In this document: positions 49,760 to 61,746 of the stretch, in pieces | How the letters are laid out: every line of letters starts with the position of its first letter | How positions within the stretch are numbered: the first letter of the stretch is position 1 | Source: a bacterium BMS3Abin02 | GTDB taxonomy: Bacteria; Actinomycetota; Acidimicrobiia; Spongiisociales; UBA4744 | Direction: 5' to 3' | Assembly: GCA_002897675.1 (NCBI GenBank) | Contig: BDSU01000045.1 | Location: 23,282-87,281, forward strand | Length of the DNA stretch: 64,000 bases | Notes under the pieces: model-generated | Told to the model about the DNA's origin: nothing | What the model saw: the letters and a program-made list of their open reading frames with translations, nothing else | Databases searched by the model: none | Made by a program: the position numbers and the translations under genes

Positions 49760-50416
49760 CTACTGAAGCACCTCGAGTTCCAGGGCGAGCCGCACGAGGG
49801 ATGCTCGGCTGTGGAGGTCGAGTTTGCGCATCATGCGCGCTTTGTACGTCTCGACGGTCTTGACGCTGAGGTACAGCATGTCGGCGATCTCGGTGTTCGA
49901 GTGACCGAGTGCCGTAAGTTCGAAGATCTCGGCCTCTCGCTCGCTGAGTGAGTCGTAGCGTTCGTGCTTCTGGTCGGTCGGTTCCTGTGGGGTATCGAGG
50001 GTGTCTTCGAGCAAGAGCTTGGTGTGGCGGGGGCTGACGTACACACCTCCCTCGTGGACGGCTCGGATAGCGGTGAGCAGCTCCTCTGCGGCGGATTGTT
50101 TGAGCAGAAAACCTGCGCCGCCGGATTCGAGAATCGTCCGCAGGTATCCGGGATCGTCGTACATGGTGAGGACCAGCACCTTGCAGTCGGGAGCCCGTTC
50201 ACGGATCATCGGAAGCGCTTCGAGGCCGCTGCATACGGGCATGTTGATGTCCATCACGACGACGTCGGGGTTGAGGTCGGCGACGAGATTCACGCACATC
50301 GATCCGTCGCCGGCTTCTCCGACGACCTCCAGGTCGGCTTCCGCGCTGAGAAGTGATTTCAGTCCGGCACGGAGTACGGCATGGTCGTCGGCGAGGACGA
50401 TGCGAATCGGATTCAC
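49760..50416 (-). CDS. NarL/LuxR-family response regulator
   Basis: REC (IVLADDHAVLRAGL...VVVMDINMP) + LuxR HTH (LSEREAEIFELTALGHSNTEIADMLYLSVKTVETYKARMMRKL). Confidence 0.9.
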   Translation of the reverse strand: MNPIRIVLADDHAVLRAGLKSLLSAEADLEVVGEAGDGSMCVNLVADLNPDVVVMDINMPVCSGLEALPMIRERAPDCKVLVLTMYDDPGYLRTILESGGAGFLLKQSAAEELLTAIRAVHEGGVYVSPRHTKLLLEDTLDTPQEPTDQKHERYDSLSEREAEIFELTALGHSNTEIADMLYLSVKTVETYKARMMRKLDLHSRASLVRLALELEVLQ

Positions 50417-51837
50417 GTGGGTACCTCGATGTATACGGAGGTTCCGCCGCTGCCACTTTCGAATCGCACCCGCCCACCGAGGAGGTCGGCGCGTTCGCTG
50501 ATGCTGTGGATGCCGACACTCTTGCCTGAGCGTCGCATTGCGTTTACATCGAAACCGACTCCGTCGTCCTCGATGATCGCCTGGACCAAGCCGTTCCTTT
50601 GCGTGACAAGGACACTGATCGTTCTTCCGTGGCTGTGGCGGGCTGCGTTGGTCATGCCTTCCTGCACCATACGGTACAGCGCGATTTCCACCGTCGACTG
50701 AAGACGGGTGGTGAGATCGAAATGGGTGTCCACCGAGAACTCGGGATATGTGCTCCTGAAGTCGGCGGCGTAGTTGCGCAATGCCTCGGCGAGCCCAAGA
50801 TCGTCGAGAACGCTCGGACGCAGGTCGCGTCCGAGCTGGCGCACCGTCTGAAGAGTCTCATCGGTGATCGCACGCAACTCGGAGGCTCTGGCATTGGCAT
50901 CTTCGGTGCCATTGGCCAGTGCCAGGGCGGAGATCCCCAGAGTCAGGGAGTTGAGGGCCTGGCCCACGTCATCGTGGAGTTCACGAGCGATCCTCTTTCG
51001 CTCTTCTTCCTGGGCGGTGATGAGCTGTTCGAGCAGGCGCGTCCTGGCCGCTTCCTTCTCATCGATGGTTGCCTGGCTTTGCTGGAGGTCATTGACCATG
51101 TGGTTGAATGCATCTGCCAGCACGCCGATCTCGTCTTTCGCCCAGCGCCGGGCGCGCGCCGCGAGATCTCCCGACCCGACCTTCCTGGTGGTCTGCACCA
51201 GATCGAGGATCGGGCGGGTGAGGATCCAGGTGAGGAAGATGGCGGCAGCGATACCGACGAGGGCGACGACCAACGTCGTGAGCAACATCTGGCCGGTTAT
51301 CGCATTGATCACATTCTGCAGCCTCGTTTCTGAGAGCCCCACCCGGGCCGTGCCGGCGCGACCGTCGAAAATGGGCGCAGAGAACTCATGTATGGTGCCT
51401 TCACTGCTCTCGTAGATGCTCTCGCCGTCGGCGTCGTGATGGATATCGAAGAGCTGGGTGGGGAATCCGTCGACTCCGAACGTGTGGGCTACGACGTTGC
51501 CGCTCGGATCGACGACGTAGGCATAGAGGGCGTCTGGGTGGTGGGCGACCGTATCGGCGAGGAGATCGTGCAGTGAGAGCGTGTCGTCCAGGAGGAGCGG
51601 ATCGACGCTACGACCCGCGATGTCACTGGCCATGGATCGGCCCCGGCTGTCCAGTTCACCGATCAGAACTTGGCGGAGGACCGCTCTCACCTGCCAGGTG
51701 ATGCCGAGGCCGAGGACGGTGGTGAGGGCAAGGACGATGCCCAGAATCTTGGTTCTGACGCTGACGGCACCCAGCAGTTGTTTCGTTTGACCTGCATACC
51801 GTTCGAGCCCTGACGGGTCGGCCGTGCGGGTGGTCAT
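50413..51837 (-). CDS. sensor histidine kinase (NarX-like; periplasmic sensor domain, HAMP, HisKA_3, HATPase_c)
   Basis: Two TM helices flanking a ~150-aa periplasmic loop, HAMP, H-box ARELHDDVGQALNSL, ATPase GMTNAARHS...DDGVGFD...GGTSV. ATGA overlap with the RR gene. Confidence 0.85.
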   Translation of the reverse strand: MTTRTADPSGLERYAGQTKQLLGAVSVRTKILGIVLALTTVLGLGITWQVRAVLRQVLIGELDSRGRSMASDIAGRSVDPLLLDDTLSLHDLLADTVAHHPDALYAYVVDPSGNVVAHTFGVDGFPTQLFDIHHDADGESIYESSEGTIHEFSAPIFDGRAGTARVGLSETRLQNVINAITGQMLLTTLVVALVGIAAAIFLTWILTRPILDLVQTTRKVGSGDLAARARRWAKDEIGVLADAFNHMVNDLQQSQATIDEKEAARTRLLEQLITAQEEERKRIARELHDDVGQALNSLTLGISALALANGTEDANARASELRAITDETLQTVRQLGRDLRPSVLDDLGLAEALRNYAADFRSTYPEFSVDTHFDLTTRLQSTVEIALYRMVQEGMTNAARHSHGRTISVLVTQRNGLVQAIIEDDGVGFDVNAMRRSGKSVGIHSISERADLLGGRVRFESGSGGTSVYIEVPT

Positions 51838-52751
51838 GGGGTCTGCTCGACCGCGTCGATGACTTCGCGTACGCCGTCGTACGCGCTGTCGGCGATAGGG
51901 ACGAATCCGTCGATGCCCAACGCGGCCAGGACCGTCACACCCGCCGGATCCGTCGAGATCGAGAGAAGAAGGTCCCTGAGCTCGGCTGCCTGGCGTGGTG
52001 AGACATCCGGAGAGACGACCACGGGTGGGATGGTGAATGCAGGCGATCGGTCGATTACTTTGATCTGCGAGGCAAGGTTCGGATCTCTCCTCAGCGCGTA
52101 GTCGAGGACGAGACTGTCGACTCCGGCCGCATCGGCGACTCCGGCCGCCACGGCTTTGATGGCCCGATCGTGACTGTAGGTGAAGAATGTCCGGGCGAAG
52201 AACGTCTCCGGTGTCTCTCCGAGTTGTTCGACGAGGTAGGTGGGATAGATACGTCCCGTCGTGCTGATCGGATCGGTGAAGGCAAAGACGACTCCGCGCA
52301 GATCGCTCATGTCTTTAGCCGTGCTGTCGTAGGGAACGATGAGTTCGGAGTAGTAGACGGTCCGGTCCTCGATCTCGGGTGCAACGAGGAGACGGAGGCC
52401 GAACTGATCGTGACCGGCAACGTAGGCGCTGGTGCACACGAATCCGACGTCGACCTCGCCGGACTTGAGAAGATCGTTGATTTCCTGATAGGTTCGGCGT
52501 TGGACGATCTCGACCGGACGTTCCAGTTTGGAACTGAGGTAGTCGGCGAGGGCGCCGTAGTTCTCGATGTTGCCTTCCGGTGACAGGATGGCGGCGACGG
52601 CGATGCGCAGAGGCTTCACCTGCCCGCCGCCGGCGGGAGGTATGGGCTGTCGTTGCGCGAAGTCGACGAATGGAAGTTGGCTCGCTCCGGGTGTGGCGCA
52701 CGCCGCAAGGAGGATGGAAAGGATCGTGACCAGGGCGATCCGGACCTTCAT
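51834..52751 (-). CDS. PhnD/SsuA-like periplasmic substrate-binding lipoprotein (candidate third component of the sensor system)
   Basis: Lipobox ILLAACA. Type-2 SBP fold (LRIAVAAILSPEGNIENYGALADYLSSKL...VDVGFVCTSAYV...YYSELIV...VFAFTDPISTTG). No ABC permease or ATPase adjacent; overlaps the HK start. Confidence 0.7.
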   Translation of the reverse strand: MKVRIALVTILSILLAACATPGASQLPFVDFAQRQPIPPAGGGQVKPLRIAVAAILSPEGNIENYGALADYLSSKLERPVEIVQRRTYQEINDLLKSGEVDVGFVCTSAYVAGHDQFGLRLLVAPEIEDRTVYYSELIVPYDSTAKDMSDLRGVVFAFTDPISTTGRIYPTYLVEQLGETPETFFARTFFTYSHDRAIKAVAAGVADAAGVDSLVLDYALRRDPNLASQIKVIDRSPAFTIPPVVVSPDVSPRQAAELRDLLLSISTDPAGVTVLAALGIDGFVPIADSAYDGVREVIDAVEQTP

Positions 52752-53317
52752 CGTCTGTCTCCCACGTAGTGCTGCAAGAACCCGGCCAGTCCTACGACGT
52801 CGTCGAGGTCGAATTGGGGTACCGGCAGGTCCCAGGGTTGGTCGGTGACGAGGGCGAGCATCTCGGTGACGTCGCATAGGAGTTCGTCACTGCGCTCGGA
52901 CCGATGCACTTCGATCTTTGGGTATGTCCCTCGCTTGTAGCCTTCGGTCAGGACGAGGTCCATGCCGGCGAAGTTCTGGGCGATCACCGCATCGAGGTCA
53001 CCTGATCCGTTTTCCCGGCGGAATACTGCAACTTGAACGGGGCTCGCACCAACGACCACGTCGGCGCCTGCCTCGGCGAGCCGGTAGGTGTCCTTGCCGG
53101 GGACGTCGAACGACGACAGGTGGCTGTGATGTTTCAGGACGCCCACGGCGAGGCCGTGTCCCTTCAGTTCGGGCAGGAGCTTCTCCAGGAGAGTGGTCTT
53201 GCCGGTCCCGGACTTGGCGACGATCGAGACGACCGGCGGCTTGAAAGTGCGAAAGGGACCATTTGTGGCATGGCCACGTTGTGGGGTCACCACGGTGCGT
53301 TCAGGCGTCGTTGGCAT
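52748..53317 (-). CDS. mobB: molybdopterin-guanine dinucleotide biosynthesis adaptor protein
   Basis: P-loop VSIVAKSGTGKTTLLEKLL, VLKHHSH, TYPKIEVHR are characteristic of MobB. Confidence 0.8.
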   Translation of the reverse strand: MPTTPERTVVTPQRGHATNGPFRTFKPPVVSIVAKSGTGKTTLLEKLLPELKGHGLAVGVLKHHSHLSSFDVPGKDTYRLAEAGADVVVGASPVQVAVFRRENGSGDLDAVIAQNFAGMDLVLTEGYKRGTYPKIEVHRSERSDELLCDVTEMLALVTDQPWDLPVPQFDLDDVVGLAGFLQHYVGDRR

Positions 53318-53377
53318 GGACCAGAGATCCCCCTCTCGAGATCATCGTCACGATGGTACACGTGAAGAAAGGGTGGA

Positions 53378-53505
53378 GAAGACGGGGTCTCGGGGGTTGT
53401 CACGCACCGAGGTAGGACATCTCGGCTATTGGCAGGTCGCCGGTCGCTCCTGTGCAAAGTTCCGAGTGGCGGTTGCTGCGGCCTTGCGGACACTGCGATG
53501 AAGTC
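53378..53505 (-). pseudogene. degenerate 128-bp duplicate of the 3' end of moaA (last ~35 codons + stop + 3' flank)
   Basis: Nucleotide-level similarity (~85%) to 56598..56725. Translation ...HSELCTGATGDLPIAEMSYLGA* versus the MoaA C-terminus ...YSELRTVATGDLPRAEMSYLGG*. Confidence 0.6.
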
Positions 53506-53718
53506 TGCAGTGCCATCGGGCGCAACTGGTCGAGGGTTGAGGAGCCCGAGAGCGATCGGGGCGAGTGCTACGGCGATACGGTCTCGTATTCATCCTGCGT
53601 CATGATGTGAGACACGTGATCACCCGAGCAAAACGAGCTTGTGGCCAACCTGCACAGCCGTCGATCTACGCATCGGCACCATTCGGCAGGCCCTTGCCGA
53701 TCAAGGAGATTGCCTGTC

Positions 53719-55221
53719 TCATGCTCTCTTCGGTTTGGCGATACGCTGGAAGACCGTGGCGGTCACCGCGGCGAGTACGACGAGCCAGGCCAGGCCGAGC
53801 AGAAGTGCGCCGAGCTGGTCGAAGGTGGTGGTGAATGCCGCGTCGACGATGACTTGGGAGGCACCCCGGCCGGGGAGTACGAGGCCCCAACTCGGAGGGG
53901 CTGCCGAGAACATGATGTTCTGAGCCATTCCGACATCGATGAACGGCACCAAGAACATCACATAGAGTCCGCCGAGGCGTCCAAACAAGACACCGACGAG
54001 AACACCGATCATGCCGTAGGTGATGGCGATCAACCCGCTCCCCACTGCGAACCAGCCCCAATCCTTGGGAGTGAAGTCGAGAGCTGTGACACCGAGCGCC
54101 ACTGCCGTGGCCAGCAACGCTGCAACCACGATCGTGCCGAGCCTGGAGGAAAGGATCTCGCGGGGGCGAAATCCTGCGATGGCGAGGCGAGAATCGGCCT
54201 CGAGCGATCCCTGGACGACGAACAGGCCTGAGAGCCCGGCGAGAAACGCGAGGGTGATTGGCACCATGATGGCGCCGTGAACGTCGGCCAAGGAAAGGGT
54301 CTTCACCACTTTGATGCCGTTTTCGGTGAGCTCGACCGGTGTCGGGTCACCCGGCGTGACGTAGAAGCTGAGTGAGATGAACAGGACCGGGAGCACGATC
54401 AGCAGCACCCACATGGCGACGTTGCGGCGATAGTCGCGTTGACCGAAGCGAAACCCTGCTCGGAGACGGTTCCAGCTCGCCCGTACAGGGCCCGCTGCAC
54501 GCCTGATTCCTCGTGTCGAAGTGGCAGCGATGAACACCGCCGCGGCGACACCGAGAGCACCAAAGGTCCATAAGAGGGCCCAACCGAGGTTACCGATGGA
54601 GCCCGAATGTCCCGAGGGGGTATCGAGCATCACCAGCGTGATGAAGTGCGACGGGAACAGCCGGGTGATCCAGATGTCGCTGTCGGACATTGCGGGGCCG
54701 AGGAACACGTCGAACATCCAGATGAAGATCACGATCAGCGATCCGTTGATATCGCTGCGAACCAGGGAACCGATGGCGACGCCGATTCCCAGATAGAGGA
54801 TGGAGAACATGACCACTCCGGCGATGGTTCGACCCGGGTTGGTGAGACCGGTCCTCAACGCGAGCGCGGCTATCGACGCTCCTGCGGCGAGCAGAGCGAG
54901 GGCGAGCCCGGAGGCAAGCCGGCCTGCCACGATGCGGCGGGCGCCCATCCCGGCGGCGGCGAGACGACGGTCCGCGTCGCGAGAGCCGAGCACATGGAAG
55001 AACCCGGCCACTCCGGCAATGAATGCCGCAGCCCATCCTGCGGTAGGTGCGACGAGGTTGCTGGGATCTCCGGCGAAACCCAGGGCCTCGGCGAAATCGG
55101 CGATGGTTCCCGCAGTGAGAATGACGAAGATGAGGGGCACGAGTACGAGCAGGACCAGGTTGATGGGGCGGCGGGCGTATTCCGCGAGGTATCGTCCTGT
55201 GAGTCGTGTTGTGACCGTCAT
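53719..55221 (-). CDS. ABC-2 family transporter permease (large, ~12 TM)
   Basis: 500 aa, entirely hydrophobic helices; ATGA-type overlap with the upstream ATPase gene. Confidence 0.6.
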   Translation of the reverse strand: MTVTTRLTGRYLAEYARRPINLVLLVLVPLIFVILTAGTIADFAEALGFAGDPSNLVAPTAGWAAAFIAGVAGFFHVLGSRDADRRLAAAGMGARRIVAGRLASGLALALLAAGASIAALALRTGLTNPGRTIAGVVMFSILYLGIGVAIGSLVRSDINGSLIVIFIWMFDVFLGPAMSDSDIWITRLFPSHFITLVMLDTPSGHSGSIGNLGWALLWTFGALGVAAAVFIAATSTRGIRRAAGPVRASWNRLRAGFRFGQRDYRRNVAMWVLLIVLPVLFISLSFYVTPGDPTPVELTENGIKVVKTLSLADVHGAIMVPITLAFLAGLSGLFVVQGSLEADSRLAIAGFRPREILSSRLGTIVVAALLATAVALGVTALDFTPKDWGWFAVGSGLIAITYGMIGVLVGVLFGRLGGLYVMFLVPFIDVGMAQNIMFSAAPPSWGLVLPGRGASQVIVDAAFTTTFDQLGALLLGLAWLVVLAAVTATVFQRIAKPKRA

Positions 55222-55916
55222 TGAACCGTCTTCCCGTCACTCAGATGCACGATGCGGTCGAAGCGGTCCTCGTCTGCAACGAAATGGCTGATGATGAGTA
55301 CCGCCCGACCGGCGTCGCGACGTTCACCCGTCAGCTCCCAGAACCGCACGTAGGTGTCCCAGTCGAAGCCCGAGTACGGCTCGTCGAGCAGCAGGACGTC
55401 GGGATCGTGCAGCAGTGCCAAACCGAGATTGAGCTTGGCCTTCGTCCCGCCGGACAGTTCCTCGACCCGCATGTCGTGGTAGTCGGCGAAACTGAAGACG
55501 TCGTAGATGTCTTCACGATTCCTCTTGATCGTGCCACGATCGAGGCCGTATGCCTCGCCGAAGAGCTCGAAGTGTTCGTCAGGGTTGAGTCGCTCATACA
55601 GAAGCGGCTCCTGTGGGCAGTACCCGAAACTCCCGCGGATGTTCACACGCCCACCGTCGCCGTCCAGCGCGCCGACGACGATCTTCATCAGCGTCGACTT
55701 GCCGGATCCGTTCTCACCGACCAGTCCCACGACCTCGCCGGCCCTGACGGTGAGGTTCGCATCGGTGAGGACCTGGTTCTCGGTCCGGCGCCAGCGGCGC
55801 CGGTAGGCCTTGGAGATGTGCTCGGCTTTCAACAGGACACTTGGTTCCATGGGTATGGTTGGTGCGCCGCCGGCACCGGATCGTGGGTCGGTCTGTTGCT
55901 CGGTTTGCCGGGTCAT
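55218..55916 (-). CDS. ABC transporter ATP-binding protein
   Basis: GENGSGKSTLMKIVVG, LSGGTKAKLNLGLALL, VLLLDEPYSGFD. Confidence 0.85.
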   Translation of the reverse strand: MTRQTEQQTDPRSGAGGAPTIPMEPSVLLKAEHISKAYRRRWRRTENQVLTDANLTVRAGEVVGLVGENGSGKSTLMKIVVGALDGDGGRVNIRGSFGYCPQEPLLYERLNPDEHFELFGEAYGLDRGTIKRNREDIYDVFSFADYHDMRVEELSGGTKAKLNLGLALLHDPDVLLLDEPYSGFDWDTYVRFWELTGERRDAGRAVLIISHFVADEDRFDRIVHLSDGKTVQ

Positions 55917-56289
55917 GTGTTCGCTTCCTTACCGGTCTAGTGGGTCACCTTGCTTGGTGGCGTGGAATCTGAGGCCGTCTACCATCACTCTTCTCCTGGT
56001 GGTCGAGGGTCTCCATCGTGGAGCCAGAACCTGCAATAACACGAAGGTACACCTTCCGGTCGAATGGAATGTCAACAACATTTCTGGCTCATGTGACCGG
56101 TCCTTGGGTGACCGAGTGGCGATTCGCGATTGCATTCCCCTTCCCTATCCTGCGCCTCGGGCTTGTGAAGGTCGAGGGCGACGGGAGGAGAAGCGCGTGC
56201 GGTCGGCAATGTCATGGGCTGGGCTGTTGGGACCGGTGAAGGCTGTCGTCGAGGGCGTTGCGGGAAGCACTGCCCGGGTTACGACCAGG

Positions 56290-56500
56290 GCGAGGTCCGT
56301 CGACTCGCCAAGGTCCGCAAAGAAACGTTCGCCACACCGCCCACATCCGCACCTGCAACGCCGTGGACCAACGGGATGATCGAACGGTTCTGTCGAGTGG
56401 TCGAGTGCGAGCGCTCGAACCGCAGCGAGATCGCAGACCGTCTCGCCCTCGCCGCCGAAGCAGGGAACCGCCGGCCGATCCACAACTCCATCAGACCCCG
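56290..56500 (+). mobile_element. decayed C-terminal fragment of a DDE (rve-type) IS transposase/integrase
   Basis: Translation ...TPWTNGMIERFCRVVECE...AGNRRPIHNSIRPRETIAMP parallels the conserved integrase-core C-terminus (P-Q-T-N-G-K-V-E-R-F ... Y-N-x-x-R-P-H-x-x-L-G-x-x-T-P). No intact N-terminus, start codon or inverted repeats were found. Confidence 0.5.
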
Positions 56501-56615
56501 CGAGACCATCGCAATGCCCCAACCCCTCGAACGCTGCAGACAGACCCCACGGCCAAACCCTCCGGACCGCGAATCTGTCTCGAATCCTCGACACCGGACG
56601 GAGTCTCGGGGGTTG

Positions 56616-57611
56616 TCACCCTCCGAGGTATGACATCTCGGCTCTTGGCAGGTCGCCGGTTGCCACTGTGCGAAGTTCCGAGTAGCGGTCGCTGCGGTCT
56701 CTCCAGACACTTGCGATGAAGTCCGCGACGTCACCCCCGGTGCGCAGCAGTTTGCGGAGATCGCGACCTCTGTTCGAGAAGAGGCATGTGAAGAGCTTCC
56801 CGTCCGCCGAGAGGCGGAGCCGGGTGCAGTCGCCGCAGAAGGGCCGGGTCACCGACGCGATGACCCCGACCTCGCCGGCACCGTCCTTGTAGCGGTAGCG
56901 TCGAGCGACCTCACCGCGGTAGGCGGGGTTGATCGGTTCGAGGGGGAACTCGGCGGCGATCATCGCGAGGATCTCGGAGGCGGGGACGACCTCGTTGAGG
57001 CGCCAGCCGTTCGTGGTCCCGACGTCGAGGTACTCGATGAATCGCACGATGTGTCCCGTGTGACGGAACTGGCGGGCCATGTCGACGACGGTCTGATCGT
57101 TGACGCCTCTGCGGACCACCGCATTGACCTTGAGCGGAGTGAGGCCGGCAGCGGAGGCCGCCTCGATTCCCTCGAGTACCCGGTCGACAGGGAAGTCCAC
57201 GTCGTTCATGTGTCGGAACACGTCGTCGTCGACGGAATCGAGGCTCACCGAGACCCGGTCGAGGCCGGCGGCGGCGAGCGTCTCGGCATTGTGCGCGAGC
57301 AGCGATCCGTTCGTTGTCAGCGTGAGTTCGATGTCGCCGATGGCGGCTACGCGGGCGACGAGGTCTGGGAAGTCGCGTCGGAGCAGCGGTTCGCCGCCGG
57401 TGAAGCGGATCTTGCGGATACCGAGACCGTACGCGGCCGAGGCCACCTGCTCGATCTCCTCGAAGGTCAAGAGTTGGTCACGCGGGAGAAACTCCCACTC
57501 CCGGCCGAACACTTCTTTCGGCATGCAGTAGACGCACCGGAAGTTGCACCGGTCTGTCACCGAGATGCGCAGATCCCTCAGGGGTCGGCCATGTGTATCG
57601 AGAGTGGCCAT
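56616..57611 (-). CDS. moaA: GTP 3',8-cyclase (molybdenum cofactor biosynthesis protein A, radical SAM)
   Basis: LRISVTDRCNFRCVYCMP radical-SAM cluster motif, C-terminal second cluster CxxC...C, ends ...MSYLGG. Coordinates follow the ORF-track frame with start at Met-55 (MATLDTHG); my hand count of the sequence lines was off by 1 nt near this start. Confidence 0.9.
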   Translation of the reverse strand: MATLDTHGRPLRDLRISVTDRCNFRCVYCMPKEVFGREWEFLPRDQLLTFEEIEQVASAAYGLGIRKIRFTGGEPLLRRDFPDLVARVAAIGDIELTLTTNGSLLAHNAETLAAAGLDRVSVSLDSVDDDVFRHMNDVDFPVDRVLEGIEAASAAGLTPLKVNAVVRRGVNDQTVVDMARQFRHTGHIVRFIEYLDVGTTNGWRLNEVVPASEILAMIAAEFPLEPINPAYRGEVARRYRYKDGAGEVGVIASVTRPFCGDCTRLRLSADGKLFTCLFSNRGRDLRKLLRTGGDVADFIASVWRDRSDRYSELRTVATGDLPRAEMSYLGG

Positions 57612-57742
57612 GTGCTCAGGCAATCTACACAGGTTTGAGCCCTGCTCCCGTGTGGGGATGCCGAGGCAATCGGGATGTTCCCGCTGCTCGACACGCCCGG
57701 AGGGCGGGCGACATGGGGCATACGTCCCGAAGACAGAGTCCC

Positions 57743-58060
57743 CTAGCCGGCTTCGAGTACCTCGTCGATCCATCCGAGGGCGGCGACCGCGGCCGGGAAC
57801 CCGACCGTTGTGATCGCGCCGAGCGCAACCTGGCGAATCTCCTGCGGGGATGATCCGGCCTGGAGGGATTTGCGGACATTGGAACGGACGGCACCTTCGG
57901 CAAGAGCTCCGATGGCGATCCCGAGTTTGACGAGTCGTGCGGCGCGGGCGTCGAGGGGGCCGGCGGCGTCGACGGCGCCGGCAAGGCGATCCAGTGCGTC
58001 ACTCACCTCGGGGTATGCCTGGCGGAAATCGAGATGCGCGCGCGGCAGATAATCGGACAT
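57743..58060 (-). CDS. carboxymuconolactone decarboxylase (AhpD-like) family protein
   Basis: 105 aa, all-helical, ...ARLVKLGIAIGALAEGAVRSNV...GSSPQEIRQVALGAITTVGFPAAV typical of the CMD/AhpD fold. Confidence 0.65.
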   Translation of the reverse strand: MSDYLPRAHLDFRQAYPEVSDALDRLAGAVDAAGPLDARAARLVKLGIAIGALAEGAVRSNVRKSLQAGSSPQEIRQVALGAITTVGFPAAVAALGWIDEVLEAG

Positions 58061-58189
58061 GTTCCTCCTTCTCGCAGCAGCTTACCGGAAGCGCAGCGAG
58101 CGTCTCAGGACGATTCGGTCGTTCTCCTCGGAAGGGGGAGCGTATCCGTCTCGTTAGGATGGAAGGGATCGCCGCAAGGACTTCGTGAC

Positions 58190-58690
58190 GTGGGACCGAC
58201 CGACATCGGGTTGTTGATTCTCAGGGTCGTCGCCGGCGCCGTCATGGTCGCGCACGGTGTCAATCATGGCCGCAACCTCGACGGGACCGCCTCGTGGTTT
58301 GCATCGATCGGGTTCCGGCGGGAACGCCTGCAGGCGGTGCTGTCCTCGATGGGCGAAGTGTCCATCGGCGTCGGTCTCGTCTTTGGGTTCTTGACGTCCT
58401 TCGCCGGTGCGGCGCTCATCGCAACGATGCTGGTGGCGTTCGTCTCGAACCACCGTTCCGCAGGATTCTTCGTGTTCAACCGTCCCGTCGAGGGATGGGA
58501 GTACCTGATGATCCTGGCCACGATCGGCGCCGTGGTCGCTGTCGCCGGACCGGGTGCGTTCTCCGTTGACGGGGCGATCGGACTCGATCTCACCGGATCG
58601 ACCGGCGGGGTCGTCGCCCTTGCCGGTGTTCTCGTAGGCGCGCTGCAATTGGCGGCGTTCTGGCGGCGGCCGTCCCTATCGGACCGATGA
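58190..58690 (+). CDS. DoxX-family membrane protein
   Basis: LLILRVVAGAVMVAHGVNH...EVSIGVGLVFGFLT... is the DoxX signature. GTG start at 58190 preferred over the upstream ATG, which would overlap the divergent gene. Confidence 0.55.
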   Translation: MGPTDIGLLILRVVAGAVMVAHGVNHGRNLDGTASWFASIGFRRERLQAVLSSMGEVSIGVGLVFGFLTSFAGAALIATMLVAFVSNHRSAGFFVFNRPVEGWEYLMILATIGAVVAVAGPGAFSVDGAIGLDLTGSTGGVVALAGVLVGALQLAAFWRRPSLSDR

Positions 58691-58892
58691 GGAATCCACG
58701 TTGACTGCCGTTCTCTCGCACCGGGACGGCAAGAGCCATGAACCGTTCGACGGTTCTTCGCCATGCGGGCGACGAGCGATGCAGCGAGCAGATCGGCCGA
58801 ACGACGAAGACGATGTGGTTCTCCTTCGCGTACAGAACGGGGTTGGAGCGTTAAATCCGTGAACGTGATACTCGAGGCCCGGCTCGCTCACC

Positions 58893-59951
58893 TCATCGCA
58901 GCGCTCCTGCCGGATAGAAGCGACGGCGCGCCCACAGTGCGACGTACACGAGGCCGATGAGGGCGGGGACTTCGATCAGAGGGCCGACGACACCGGCGAG
59001 GGCCTCACCTGAGGAGATGCCGAAGATGCCGATGGTGACGGCTATGGCCAGTTCGAAGTTGTTCCCGGCGGCCGTGAACGAGAGCGTTACGTTCTTCGGG
59101 TAGGAGAGTCGCAGACGCAGGCCGAGCGCGAACGAGACACCCCACATGATAGCGAAGTACGCGACCAGTGGCAGGGCGATGCGGGCGACGTCGAAGGGCT
59201 GTGAGGTGATCGCCTCACCTTGAAGGGCGAACAACAGCACGACGGTGAACAGCAGACCCCAGAGGGCGATCGGCCCGACCCTCGGCAAGAACGTTTCCTC
59301 GTACCATTCGACGCCCTTGAATCGCTCACCCCACAGCCGGGTCAGCCACCCTGCAAGCAGTGGGATGCCGAGGAAGATGAGCACCGACTTGGCGATCGCC
59401 CACATCGAGATCGAGACCGTGTGTGTTTCCAGGCCGAGCCACCCCGGGAGCACCACGAGATAGAAATACCCGAGGATCGCGTACGCGACGATCTGAAAGA
59501 GTGAGTTGAGCGCTACGAGGACCGCAGCGGCCTCACGGTGCCCGTCGGCGAGGTCGTTCCAGATGAGCACCATCGCGATACACCGAGCCAGGCCAACGAG
59601 GATGAGTCCGGTGCGATAGGCGGGGAGGTCAGGGAGCAGGAGCCAAGCGAGGGTGAACATGAGTGCGGGACCGACTATCCAGTTGAGCAGCAGAGAGGCG
59701 ATCATGAGGGTGTGGTCGGTGGCGACCTCACCGATGCGTGAGTACCGCACCTTGGCGAGCACCGGGTACATCATCGCCAGCAGGCCGAGAGCGATGGGCA
59801 GCGAGACGGTGTCGATCTTGACCGCATCGAGCCAATTGTTCAGGTTGGGGATCGACCGTCCGAGAAGCAGGCCGGCTGCCATGGCGAGCCCGATCCAGAC
59901 CGGCAGGAATCGGTCGAGAAGCGAAAGGCGTTCGACGATCGACTCCTCCAT
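58893..59951 (-). CDS. acr3: arsenite efflux permease, ACR3 family
   Basis: LSLLDRFLPVWIGLAMAAGLLLG...MMYPVLAKVRY...NWIVGPALMF and 10 TM helices are diagnostic of ACR3. Start at MEESIVERL; an upstream Met at 59984 is possible. Confidence 0.9.
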   Translation of the reverse strand: MEESIVERLSLLDRFLPVWIGLAMAAGLLLGRSIPNLNNWLDAVKIDTVSLPIALGLLAMMYPVLAKVRYSRIGEVATDHTLMIASLLLNWIVGPALMFTLAWLLLPDLPAYRTGLILVGLARCIAMVLIWNDLADGHREAAAVLVALNSLFQIVAYAILGYFYLVVLPGWLGLETHTVSISMWAIAKSVLIFLGIPLLAGWLTRLWGERFKGVEWYEETFLPRVGPIALWGLLFTVVLLFALQGEAITSQPFDVARIALPLVAYFAIMWGVSFALGLRLRLSYPKNVTLSFTAAGNNFELAIAVTIGIFGISSGEALAGVVGPLIEVPALIGLVYVALWARRRFYPAGALR

Positions 59952-60060
59952 CGCCCCGCTTCGGGTATGTGGTGACGGCGTCATTCCTCCCACACCCGGA
60001 ACTGATTCATGAGAGACGCGGTCTTGGGTGCTTTGCCGTCGTGGGTTGGGATGCCAACGA

Positions 60061-60375
60061 TCATCGTGCGGTCTCCAACAGCCCGTATTCCGCGGGGATC
60101 GCCCTACGCAGTTTGTCCCAGGCGCCGGAGGCGATCGAGTAGTCGACCCATCGGCCACGCTTGTCGCCGACGATGAGTCCGGCTTCCCTGAGGACCTTCA
60201 AGTGATAGGAGAGGAGGTTCGGGGCGATCGCGACGGTGTCGCCGATCTCGCAAACGCACTTCGGCGTGTCCGAGAGGAGGTCGAGGATGGCCAGCCGGGT
60301 CGGGTCGGCGAGTGCTCTGAACAGTTCGGCGCTCTGTTCAAAACGTGTTGTAGCAAGATCCATTGAAACGTTCAT
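60061..60375 (-). CDS. arsR: ArsR/SmtB-family metalloregulator
   Basis: ALADPTRLAILDLLSDTPKCVCEIGDTVAIAPNLLSYHLKVLREAGLI has the CVC metal-binding site in the first helix of the HTH. Confidence 0.85.
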   Translation of the reverse strand: MNVSMDLATTRFEQSAELFRALADPTRLAILDLLSDTPKCVCEIGDTVAIAPNLLSYHLKVLREAGLIVGDKRGRWVDYSIASGAWDKLRRAIPAEYGLLETAR

Positions 60376-60594
60376 GTCCGAACTGTACCAAGCGGGACAA
60401 GGGAGGCAAACCGGATGGTGAGGAATCGTCATGGCCCGTCTCGTCGTCACCGCGAGTGGTCGCCATCGGGTACGGACGCGACGATGCCGATCGGTGGTTA
60501 CCGATCGGCATCGTGTGGCGAGGAGGATTCGCCGGTGGGGTGTAGCCGGACGTCGTCGGGCCGGATCACCCCAATCGTCGGGCGCTTTGCGGGA

Positions 60595-60822
60595 TCAGTG
60601 TCCTGCGAGCAGGTCGCTGCGCCTCGCTTCGAGCTCGAGTGCGTCGATCTCCCCGCGGGCGAATCTGGCCTCGAGGATGTCGAGGGCCCGGTCACGAGAA
60701 CTCCTCACGTTCTCCGGCCTCGAGCCTGCACTCCGAGCGACCCAGACGATTCCCCAGAGGATCGCTCCCCAGAACAAGACCATCCAAAGACCTCCGAACC
60801 ATCCTCCAAATGACCACATCAT
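60595..60822 (-). CDS. SHOCT-domain small membrane protein
   Basis: Two TM helices then SHOCT (ALDILEARFARGEIDALELEARRSDLL). Confidence 0.5.
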   Translation of the reverse strand: MMWSFGGWFGGLWMVLFWGAILWGIVWVARSAGSRPENVRSSRDRALDILEARFARGEIDALELEARRSDLLAGH

Positions 60823-60972
60823 GATGTTCTCCTTGCTCTCGATACGATCAGTACATCAGAGGAAGATGAACGGTCTACGCACGCCCGTGTAAAGCTTCTG
60901 CAACGGTCGACAGCATCTTGCAACAGGTTTGCAATAAGCTGCTGTTCGGGAGACGCCAACAGGAGAAGGGTC

Positions 60973-61746
60973 GTGCCGGAACTCATTGCCACCATTCACA
61001 CGGTTTCTCCCGTCGGCGTGGCTCTTCTCGTTTCGGCCTTCTTCCTCGGATTGCGGCATGGCATCGACTGGGACCACATCGCCGCCATCACGGATATCAC
61101 GAGCACACAGGACACGATGCGGTCCTCGCTGTGGTTCTCGACGCTCTACGCCGTCGGGCACGCGTCGGTCGTACTGGCCATCGGTGCCGCCTTGATCGTG
61201 GCCGACTTCGAAATGCCGGCAGGTCTGGAGTCGCTCATGGGCAGGGTCGTCGGGGCCACGCTCGTCGTCTTGGGAGTCTGGGTCCTCGTAGCACTGGTCC
61301 GTCACGGGGACCGTTTCCGGATGCGGAGTCGTTGGATGCTCCTGTTCTCCGCCGTGCGTTCCGGAATCCGGCGCCTTCGAGGACATCGGAGCGGGCCCGA
61401 GGCATCCGGTCAGGATCCGTTTGCCACCTATGGAGCCAAGACGTCGTTGGGTGTCGGCATGCTCCATGGGGTGGGAGCCGAGACACCCACCCAGGTGGTG
61501 ATCTTTCTCGGTGCGACAGGTGTCGGTGGGAAAGGTCTCGGGATGGGCGTACTGGTGGTCTTCGTCGTGGGACTGATTGCGGCCAACACGCTGATCGCCG
61601 TCGGCGCCTCGGTCGGCTTTCTCAGCACCACGCGCTCTCTCTGGGCGTACCGGCTGACCGGCGGCATCATTGCACTCTTCAGCCTGGTCCTCGGCACGGT
61701 ATTCCTCTTGGGTGACGCTTCGCTGCTGCCGGCCCTCGTGAGCTAG
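60973..61746 (+). CDS. NicO/RcnA-like metal (Ni/Co) transporter family membrane protein
   Basis: TM protein with LGLRHGIDWDHIAAI (H-x4-D-H metal motif) and a His-rich cytoplasmic loop (RHGDRFRMR...RGHRSG). Confidence 0.5.
   Translation: MPELIATIHTVSPVGVALLVSAFFLGLRHGIDWDHIAAITDITSTQDTMRSSLWFSTLYAVGHASVVLAIGAALIVADFEMPAGLESLMGRVVGATLVVLGVWVLVALVRHGDRFRMRSRWMLLFSAVRSGIRRLRGHRSGPEASGQDPFATYGAKTSLGVGMLHGVGAETPTQVVIFLGATGVGGKGLGMGVLVVFVVGLIAANTLIAVGASVGFLSTTRSLWAYRLTGGIIALFSLVLGTVFLLGDASLLPALVS

Follow-up and report, generated by a model that had tools for sequence, protein, structure and literature searches.

Prophage e14 and phage 21 reportedly integrate into the 3' end of the Escherichia coli icd gene and leave behind a duplicated, diverged icd tail. 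Campbell-type (single-crossover) integration, which is a mechanism rather than a family of elements, flanks an insert with a direct duplication of the homologous segment while the target gene stays intact. DDE transposases of the IS481 kind, on the other hand, make target duplications of only a few bases. The locus described here lies between the genes moaA and mobB in a 64-kb stretch of DNA from 'bacterium BMS3Abin02' (contig BDSU01000045.1; the whole stretch is called the window below, and all positions are 1-based positions in it). The genes moaA and mobB and an ABC transporter gene pair that now separates them are all on the minus strand. The locus as a whole is very probably explained by the insertion of a ~3.1-kb segment between moaA and mobB, with a target duplication of ~130 bp, in an Acidimicrobiia-like ancestor. 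It is an old and fixed insertion scar of a familiar kind, in which debris of an insertion sequence (IS) is combined with a transplanted piece of an operon and the duplicated tail of a gene. It does not point to a new system, and its use is mainly for annotation.

The insert (53509-56596, ~3.1 kb) is bounded exactly by the two copies of a partial duplication. When each segment was compared with the window by blastn, 53381-53508 and 56597-56726 aligned over 130 bp with 86.9% identity (E 9e-39), and no further copy of the repeat was found anywhere in the window. A repeat finder likewise returned one long direct repeat, 53381-53484 versus 56597-56700, at 88% identity. An earlier reading of this DNA from its letters alone (the sequence-only reading) had described a 128-bp duplication of ~85% identity at 53378-53505 and 56598-56725, which is right to within 3 nt. 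The moaA-proximal copy (copy B, 56597-56726, minus strand) consists of the last ~110 nt of moaA and ~20 nt past its stop codon (56616-56618). The other copy (copy A, 53381-53508, minus strand) comprises the same moaA 3' end with ~20 nt past the stop and precedes the mobB start (53317) by 63 nt. In the MAFFT alignment of the two copies the mismatches are evenly spread, there are two 1-nt indels, and the longest identical runs are 16-17 nt. Nothing significant continues the repeat past 53508 (local score 14 versus a shuffle mean of 15); with gaps allowed, there is a hint of up to ~20 further decayed bases.

Intact moaA (56616-57611, minus strand) encodes a GTP 3',8-cyclase of 331 residues, in which both Pfam domains (Radical_SAM and Mob_synth_C) are found and which exceeds the equivalog cut-off of TIGR02666 (366 bits versus 284). 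Copy A has no reading frame continuous with a MoaA catalytic domain. About 37 codons are recognisable in it, in two frames and without any upstream moaA sequence. Its translation is split into a part ending in TADFIAVS and, in another frame, RSNRHSELCTGATGDLPIAEMSYLGA followed by a stop codon, where MoaA itself ends in DVADFIASVWRDRSDRYSELRTVATGDLPRAEMSYLGG; the stretch that still encodes the end of MoaA reads SELCTGATGDLPIAEMSYLGA up to the stop, the preceding TADFIAVS being in the other frame. The sequence-only reading had this segment still translating to the MoaA C-terminal peptide; the peptide is recognisable, yet frameshifted. An Rfam scan of 50000-61000 at E<=1 gave zero matches, so that the repeats and their surroundings show neither a molybdenum cofactor riboswitch nor any other RNA family. 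Copy A is a moaA-like pseudogene fragment upstream of mobB, neither a gene nor a regulatory RNA.

The original order of the genes is preserved in a relative (L095, MoaA 78% identical in amino acids), in which moaA is followed by mobB after 67 nt. This L095 spacer can be aligned to window 53318-53380, the 63 nt that separate copy A from mobB, and the two share an exact 12-mer, CGTGTACCATCG, and the motif CTCG.GAGGG.GA. The alignment score of 30 compares with a maximum of 22 in shuffled sequences, and none of 1000 shuffles reached 30. Because the spacer adjoining copy A is homologous to the L095 moaA-mobB spacer, copy A occupies the place that the moaA tail originally had, and moaA and mobB were once adjacent. 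The 63-nt spacer is now the mobB leader and is 95% identical in the sister lineage described below.

Next to copy B, in the opposite orientation to moaA and converging with it, the insert contains the remnant of an IS481-like (rve_3) DDE transposase gene (56285-56593, plus strand), which amounts to the last ~75-100 codons and a terminal repeat. The plus-strand frame 56214-56633 contains the sequence TPWTNGMIERF and, further on, IHNSIRPRETI, and thus the motifs TNGMIERF and HNSIRPR. It matches Pfam rve_3 with an E of 0.003 and the NCBIfam IS481 model (NF033577) with an E of 5.7e-5 over model positions 220-283 of 284, at 22.8 bits versus a full-length cut-off of 224; the match to IS3 is weaker (E 0.005). 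A phmmer search of 1.8 billion representative proteins returned 23 hits, of which the best full-length ones are 47-50% identical (E 1e-10 to 1e-9) and themselves pass the Pfam rve_3 cut-off. Placed back on the window by tblastn, these homologues cover 56358-56591 with a weak extension to 56285, and longer homologues found nothing significant upstream of ~56285. A tblastn search of plasmids with the frame gave no match. The assignment of this frame to a DDE integrase C-terminus, made originally from its motifs, thus agrees with the rve_3, IS481 and phmmer matches, and this short frame (56.3-56.6 kb) represents IS debris.

The natural C-termini of the homologues align at ~56585-56591, and the end of the transposase gene is directly followed by GAATCTGTCTCGAATCCTCGACA, which ends at 56593. 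On the other strand it reads as a terminal repeat starting with TGT (TGTCGAGGATTCGAGACAGATTC, 56571-56593 on the minus strand), which is separated from copy B by 3 nt. In this respect the remnant resembles complete IS481 elements, in which a TGT... terminal sequence likewise follows the transposase gene after a few bases, and it shares with the family the C-terminal ~65-75 residues with the W-TNG-x-IERF and YN-x-IRPH motifs. Unlike them, it has kept only a single end and roughly a quarter of the gene, without the helix-turn-helix (HTH), without the D-D part of the catalytic triad, without a second inverted repeat and without a short target duplication. The terminal sequence 56571-56593 has no partner in the window even when 3 mismatches are allowed, and a repeat search found no inverted repeat pairing the two insert ends. 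One end of an IS481-like element therefore abuts the moaA-proximal repeat, the other three quarters or so of the element being gone. A composite transposon is not supported: there is a single IS remnant, and 53509-53718 at the opposite end has no transposase or IS similarity. The junction of copy B and the IS end looks like a true transposition joint, whereas the junction at 53508/53509 has no IS end. Judged by what is left of it, the IS481-like remnant cannot be active, nor can it account for the 130-bp repeat.

The rest of the insert has a different origin. Its two intact genes encode an ABC transporter ATP-binding protein (55218-55916, minus strand; Pfam ABC_tran, E 4e-24) and a 500-residue ABC-2 family permease (53719-55221, minus strand; Pfam ABC2_membrane_3), so that the ABC-2 ATPase/permease pair named in the sequence-only reading is confirmed by Pfam. 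Homologues of the permease are widespread in metagenome-assembled genomes annotated as Acidimicrobiia; an exact look-up of the window permease itself gave no record, as it differs from its deposited versions by a few residues. The closest non-self orthologues of the pair (82-85% identical in amino acids) are found in two relatives, L097 and L098, where they form the distal part of a gene string composed of a P1B-type ATPase (YHS/HMA/E1-E2; copA), a cupredoxin, a 76-residue open reading frame (ORF), the ABC ATPase and the permease. In L098, a divergent MerR-family gene is located upstream of copA and adjoins the same promoter sequence as the one described below. Nucleotide homology between the window and L097 runs from 55975 to 53727 at 85.6% identity (the same value as for the ATPase gene) and starts within the last ~15 codons of the small ORF (55929-55975, minus strand), the ORF that precedes the ABC pair in the relatives' cop operons. 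The peptide of this tail, LRFHATKQGDPLDR up to the stop codon, matches LRFQATKQGNTQDR in L097. An ORF of 68 residues at 55929-56135 was considered as a real gene and rejected: only its last ~15 codons match the relatives' small ORF, and it is a truncated remnant.

A MerR/CueR-type promoter-like block (56043-56087, minus strand) precedes the start of the ABC ATPase gene by ~130 nt. It consists of TTGACA, a 20-nt spacer (TTCCATTCGACCGGAAGGTG) with the dyad CATTCC..GGAAGG, and TACCTT, and so has both the spacing and the dyad of MerR/CueR promoters. In L097 and L098 its counterpart is found in the merR-copA intergenic region, with the invariant core TTGACATTCCATTCG...GGAAGGTGTA. In the window the block occurs once, and no other block is as well conserved between window and sister lineage. 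The copA promoter of E. coli MG1655, TTGACC-(19 nt: TTCCCCTTGCTGGAAGGTT)-TAACCT, has the same layout. A sigma-70 promoter scan of 53200-56800, which accepts 16-18-nt spacers only, found no promoter, and the two terminator-like sites in this region are at chance level. The window thus shares with the L097 and L098 cop operons the promoter core and the orthologous ABC pair, but differs from them in that the promoter has been joined to the pair itself, ~130 nt before it, and copA, the cupredoxin gene and most of the small ORF are missing. Searches with the L098 MerR, CopA and cupredoxin proteins (tblastn) found no homologue of merR, copA or the cupredoxin gene in the 64-kb window. The cargo is thus the distal part of a cop-type operon together with its promoter, from which copA, the cupredoxin gene and most of the small ORF have been deleted.

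Two stretches of the insert have no recognisable source. Between the promoter block and the transposase remnant, 56088-56284 is conserved in the sister lineage (L094), has no counterpart in the relatives' cop operons, and gave no Pfam or NCBIfam match for the frames covering it. It was considered as a merR remnant and rejected, since the tblastn searches with the three L098 proteins found nothing in the insert. At the opposite end, 53509-53718 has no IS end, no family homology and no counterpart in the relatives' cop operons; the similarity of window and sister stops 25 nt past the permease stop codon, and no similarity was found between 53509-53718 and the IS debris that the sister carries.

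The insertion is not peculiar to one assembly. The window MobB is encoded identically on eleven public contigs from marine sulfide-deposit metagenomes ('bacterium BMS3Abin02'). Over 52700-57800 the identity of ten contigs to the window is 99.5-99.9%, and the locus is built alike wherever a contig covers it completely; this population is fixed for the structure. Among proteins that differ from those of the window, the nearest MobB (87% identical in amino acids) and the nearest MoaA (92%) are found on contigs L091 and L094, respectively. L094 has the order DoxX, CMD, moaA, a 576-nt interval, ABC ATPase and permease, after which the contig stops. L091 begins with the 76 nt that end L094, without a mismatch, and goes on to an IS256-family transposase gene on the opposite strand (NF033543, E 1.5e-42), a 70-residue IS630-like HTH fragment (E 2.6e-6) and a moaA remnant of 259 nt, followed by mobB and the downstream genes known from the window. 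The window is 89-92% identical to L094 and 90.7% identical to L091, in the latter case up to exactly 53508. The transposase remnant is partly deleted in L094, where 105 nt correspond to window 56296-56526. Judging from their overlap, L094 and L091 would belong together and represent a sister lineage with the same insertion but different right-end debris. In L091 the IS256-family gene and the IS630-like fragment occupy 2-1497 and are fused directly to the moaA remnant. With this debris, three different IS families have left traces at the junction across the two lineages.

The sister's remnant is longer than copy A and appears to be of two ages. A comparison of L091 1498-1756 with the sister's intact moaA (L094 10757-11015) found differences at 4 of 118 sites in the 5' half of the remnant, in which 78 consecutive nt are identical and every one of the seven sister-specific alleles is present, versus 25 of 141 sites (18%) in the 3' half (Fisher p 0.0002 for the contrast between the halves). 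The switch between the halves, at alignment column ~146-149, is no more than ~20 nt away from where copy A of the window has its left boundary. We infer that the ancestral remnant was ~130 nt long and that the sister later extended it by copying its intact gene, through gene conversion or templated break repair near the IS debris.

Given that the sister lineage is ~10% diverged and has the same architecture, the event is old and should predate the split of the two lineages. Synonymous-site divergence (pS) between the window and the sister is 0.18-0.26 in mobB, the PhnD-like gene next to it, the kinase gene and moaA. The two remnants (copy A and its sister counterpart) differ at 31 of 139 sites (22%), the intact copies B of the two lineages differ by 10%, and copies A and B of the window differ by 19% over the same columns. 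Because the 22% difference matches the synonymous-site divergence, the remnants look neutral, while the mobB leader next to copy A differs at only 3 of 61 sites (Fisher p 0.002 versus the remnant). By this measure copy A evolves neutrally and the leader is constrained. The duplication would date roughly to the split of the lineages or slightly before it, and it is this equality of neutral decay and synonymous divergence that makes the locus a cleanly dated case of an otherwise ordinary rearrangement. The two ABC cargo genes have a pS of 0.136 (window 53719-55916 versus L094 11573-13770), lower than in the flanking genes; a later exchange of the cargo between the lineages or a stronger codon constraint are possible reasons.

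Outside these two lineages the structure was not seen. In 80 distant moaA loci (MoaA at 59-70% identity), mobB was never within 10 kb of moaA and a second moaA tail was never present. In total 104 loci were fetched, 94 of them with a moaA match, and no locus from outside this population has a second moaA tail, so the event is lineage-specific. Scans of metagenome contigs for the IS terminal sequence and for the mobB leader pattern gave 0 hits each, in a collection that evidently lacks these samples.

On these comparisons the ancestor would have had moaA directly followed by mobB, and a segment of ~3.1 kb (now 53509-56596) would have entered ~20 nt past the moaA stop codon, with duplication of ~130 bp comprising the moaA tail and these 20 nt. 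The gene would have stayed intact by way of copy B, and the redundant tail, copy A, would have stayed on the old moaA-mobB spacer. Read from copy B, the insert is a mosaic of an IS481-like 3' end with its terminal repeat, ~200 nt of no known origin, the MerR/CueR-type promoter, the small-ORF tail and the ABC pair. Each element of the sequence-only reading is supported: the former adjacency of moaA and mobB agrees with the contiguity and the homologous spacer in L095; the proposed entry of a mobile or foreign segment agrees with the ABC orthologues in copA-cupredoxin-ABC operons and with the IS481-like remnant abutting copy B; and the partial duplication said to be left behind flanks the insert exactly. 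The case that was named as fatal to it, a relative with the transporter between moaA and mobB and no duplication, was not found, and the sole relative with the transporter in this position carries the duplication, in a longer form. What has been refined is that the event is ancient, fixed and common to a sister lineage, that the transposase itself cannot make a 130-bp duplication, and that the insert brings its own metal-responsive-type promoter.

How the duplication arose is a separate matter. Since target duplications of IS481-type transposases span a few bases, the 130-bp duplication is not one of them. Its geometry fits a single crossover with a circle, a site-specific element that carries a replacement gene tail, or the repair of a widely staggered break. 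A single crossover duplicates the homology and keeps the gene intact, and therefore suits the moaA locus. In the course of events that we favour, the IS end would have made the moaA-proximal junction by ordinary transposition, and on a donor chromosome the IS and the adjacent cargo would have lain next to a moaA tail. Illegitimate joining would then have formed a circle of IS, cargo and moaA tail, and this circle would have integrated into a naive moaA-mobB locus by a single crossover in the tail, or an equivalent repair of a staggered break could have taken place; the remainder of the IS would have been deleted or eroded later. It is rather doubtful that this reflects a recurrent, integrase-independent route, in which IS-associated circles with a housekeeping-gene tail would re-insert by homology without inactivating the gene and the remnant would later be extended by templated repair from the intact copy. 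The context for this suggestion is the sister's 78-nt stretch identical to its own moaA, which starts within ~20 nt of the boundary of the window remnant.

Several observations weigh against the insertion history as given. No circular donor, second IS end or integrase was found, and the circle and crossover step is inferred only. There is no close relative with an empty site that would display the exact pre-insertion sequence, L095 being ~76% identical in DNA. The mobB gene has other neighbours in distant relatives (CMD-mobB in L092, NrfD-mobB in L093, and others in L101-L105), so the neighbourhood of mobB is generally fluid, which does not contradict the former adjacency. The sister locus is joined from contigs of two different samples through the 76-nt overlap. 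Among the four sequences (two remnants and two intact copies), 4 sites have the pattern expected for a duplication before the lineage split and 3 the pattern expected for homogenised or independent copies, which does not resolve the order. Finally, G+C content is flat at ~0.62 across the insert without a skew anomaly, so the foreign origin of the insert has no independent backing from its composition.

The arrangement at icd raises the alternative of a decayed site-specific integrative element with a tyrosine or serine recombinase, for which the moaA 3' end would have been the attachment site, copy B being attL and copy A attR, and whose integrase would have been lost. As with e14 and phage 21, the moaA insert adjoins a housekeeping gene at its 3' end, where the gene tail is kept in frame in one copy, and a second, diverged copy is at the far end next to the native downstream DNA. 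This geometry fits, in that the insert-proximal copy keeps the gene intact and the displaced copy stays on the native downstream flank, and the repeat is far too long for the target duplication of a transposase. Yet the scanned frames of 53509-56596 contain no integrase gene or fragment (the six frames of 53509-53718 and 56088-56284 were not all covered), and the sole recombinase remnant is the piece of a DDE transposase. Unlike the icd prophages, the moaA locus has a repeat that includes ~20 nt past the stop codon and in which no identical core is recognisable, the mismatches being evenly distributed, although ~20% neutral decay could hide one. The insert is only 3.1 kb of operon debris and an IS fragment, its cargo is a piece of a chromosomal operon rather than island-like, and the absence of a second moaA tail from 80 other moaA loci suggests that moaA is not a recurrent attachment site. 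We therefore regard an integrative element as unlikely.

The order of events could also be reversed, with a spontaneous slippage duplication of ~130 bp over the moaA stop codon arising first and the IS481-like element and its cargo entering later between the copies. Short tandem duplications are common, the first copy would keep moaA intact and make the change neutral, and the IS end is indeed at the junction of the two copies. But it would take a coincidence for the IS to have hit the duplication joint to within ~3 nt, and no relative with an uninterrupted tandem state was present among the loci examined; this order of events seems quite improbable. Least credible is a functional copy A, either as a conserved mobB regulatory leader or small RNA that resembles the moaA tail, or as a segment maintained by gene conversion. 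Its retention in two lineages and the partial re-copying of the sister remnant from the intact gene would favour this, but the remnant diverges at the neutral rate (22% versus a pS of ~0.2) next to a leader that is 95% conserved, it is frameshifted and without an Rfam match, and its left boundary and upstream neighbours differ between the lineages. We consider a function of copy A highly improbable. The insertion of a ~3.1-kb segment with duplication of the moaA tail is thus retained as the preferred reading.

Following this insertion, the ABC pair would probably be transcribed from the imported metal-responsive-type promoter, as predicted from its sequence, and mobB from its leader, by read-through, or both. 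The imported promoter could couple the expression of mobB and the genes downstream to metal stress, an unremarkable consequence. The 63-nt mobB leader ends in CACGTGTACCATCGTGACGATGATCTCGAGAGGGGGATCTCTGGTCC-ATG and is recognisable in L095. Because it is conserved far above the adjoining neutral sequence, the ribosome-binding site of mobB is probably located in it, perhaps together with a regulatory site or promoter.

The mobB gene itself (52748-53317, minus strand) encodes a protein with a MobB P-loop domain (Pfam MobB, E 5e-39) that passes the curated cut-off of TIGR00176 (121 bits versus 76). It is followed on the minus strand by genes for a PhnD-like binding protein, a histidine kinase and a response regulator. 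The gene of the PhnD-like periplasmic binding protein overlaps mobB through ATGA (region 50413-52877); the kinase is of the sCache/HAMP type and the regulator of the LuxR type, and a Fer4_11-NrfD-molybdopterin oxidoreductase set comes next (downstream genes seen in L081). What has been split is accordingly a moaA-mobB-(sensor/regulator/molybdoenzyme) operon, into which a fragment of a copper-resistance operon has brought its own metal-responsive-type promoter. The module of PhnD-like protein, kinase, regulator and molybdoenzyme recurs in relatives, at times twice (L093), which suggests an oxyanion-sensing regulator of the molybdoenzyme. The binding protein weakly matches the putative selenate-binding family TIGR04553, at 87 bits and below the cut-off of that family.

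On the other side of the insert, the longest ORF for moaA has 385 codons and starts at 57773, overlapping the upstream CMD-family gene (57743-58060). Gene calls on the near-identical contigs give a MoaA of 331 residues and all homologues have 331-333, which places the true start at 57611, and moaA should be annotated from this position instead of 57773.

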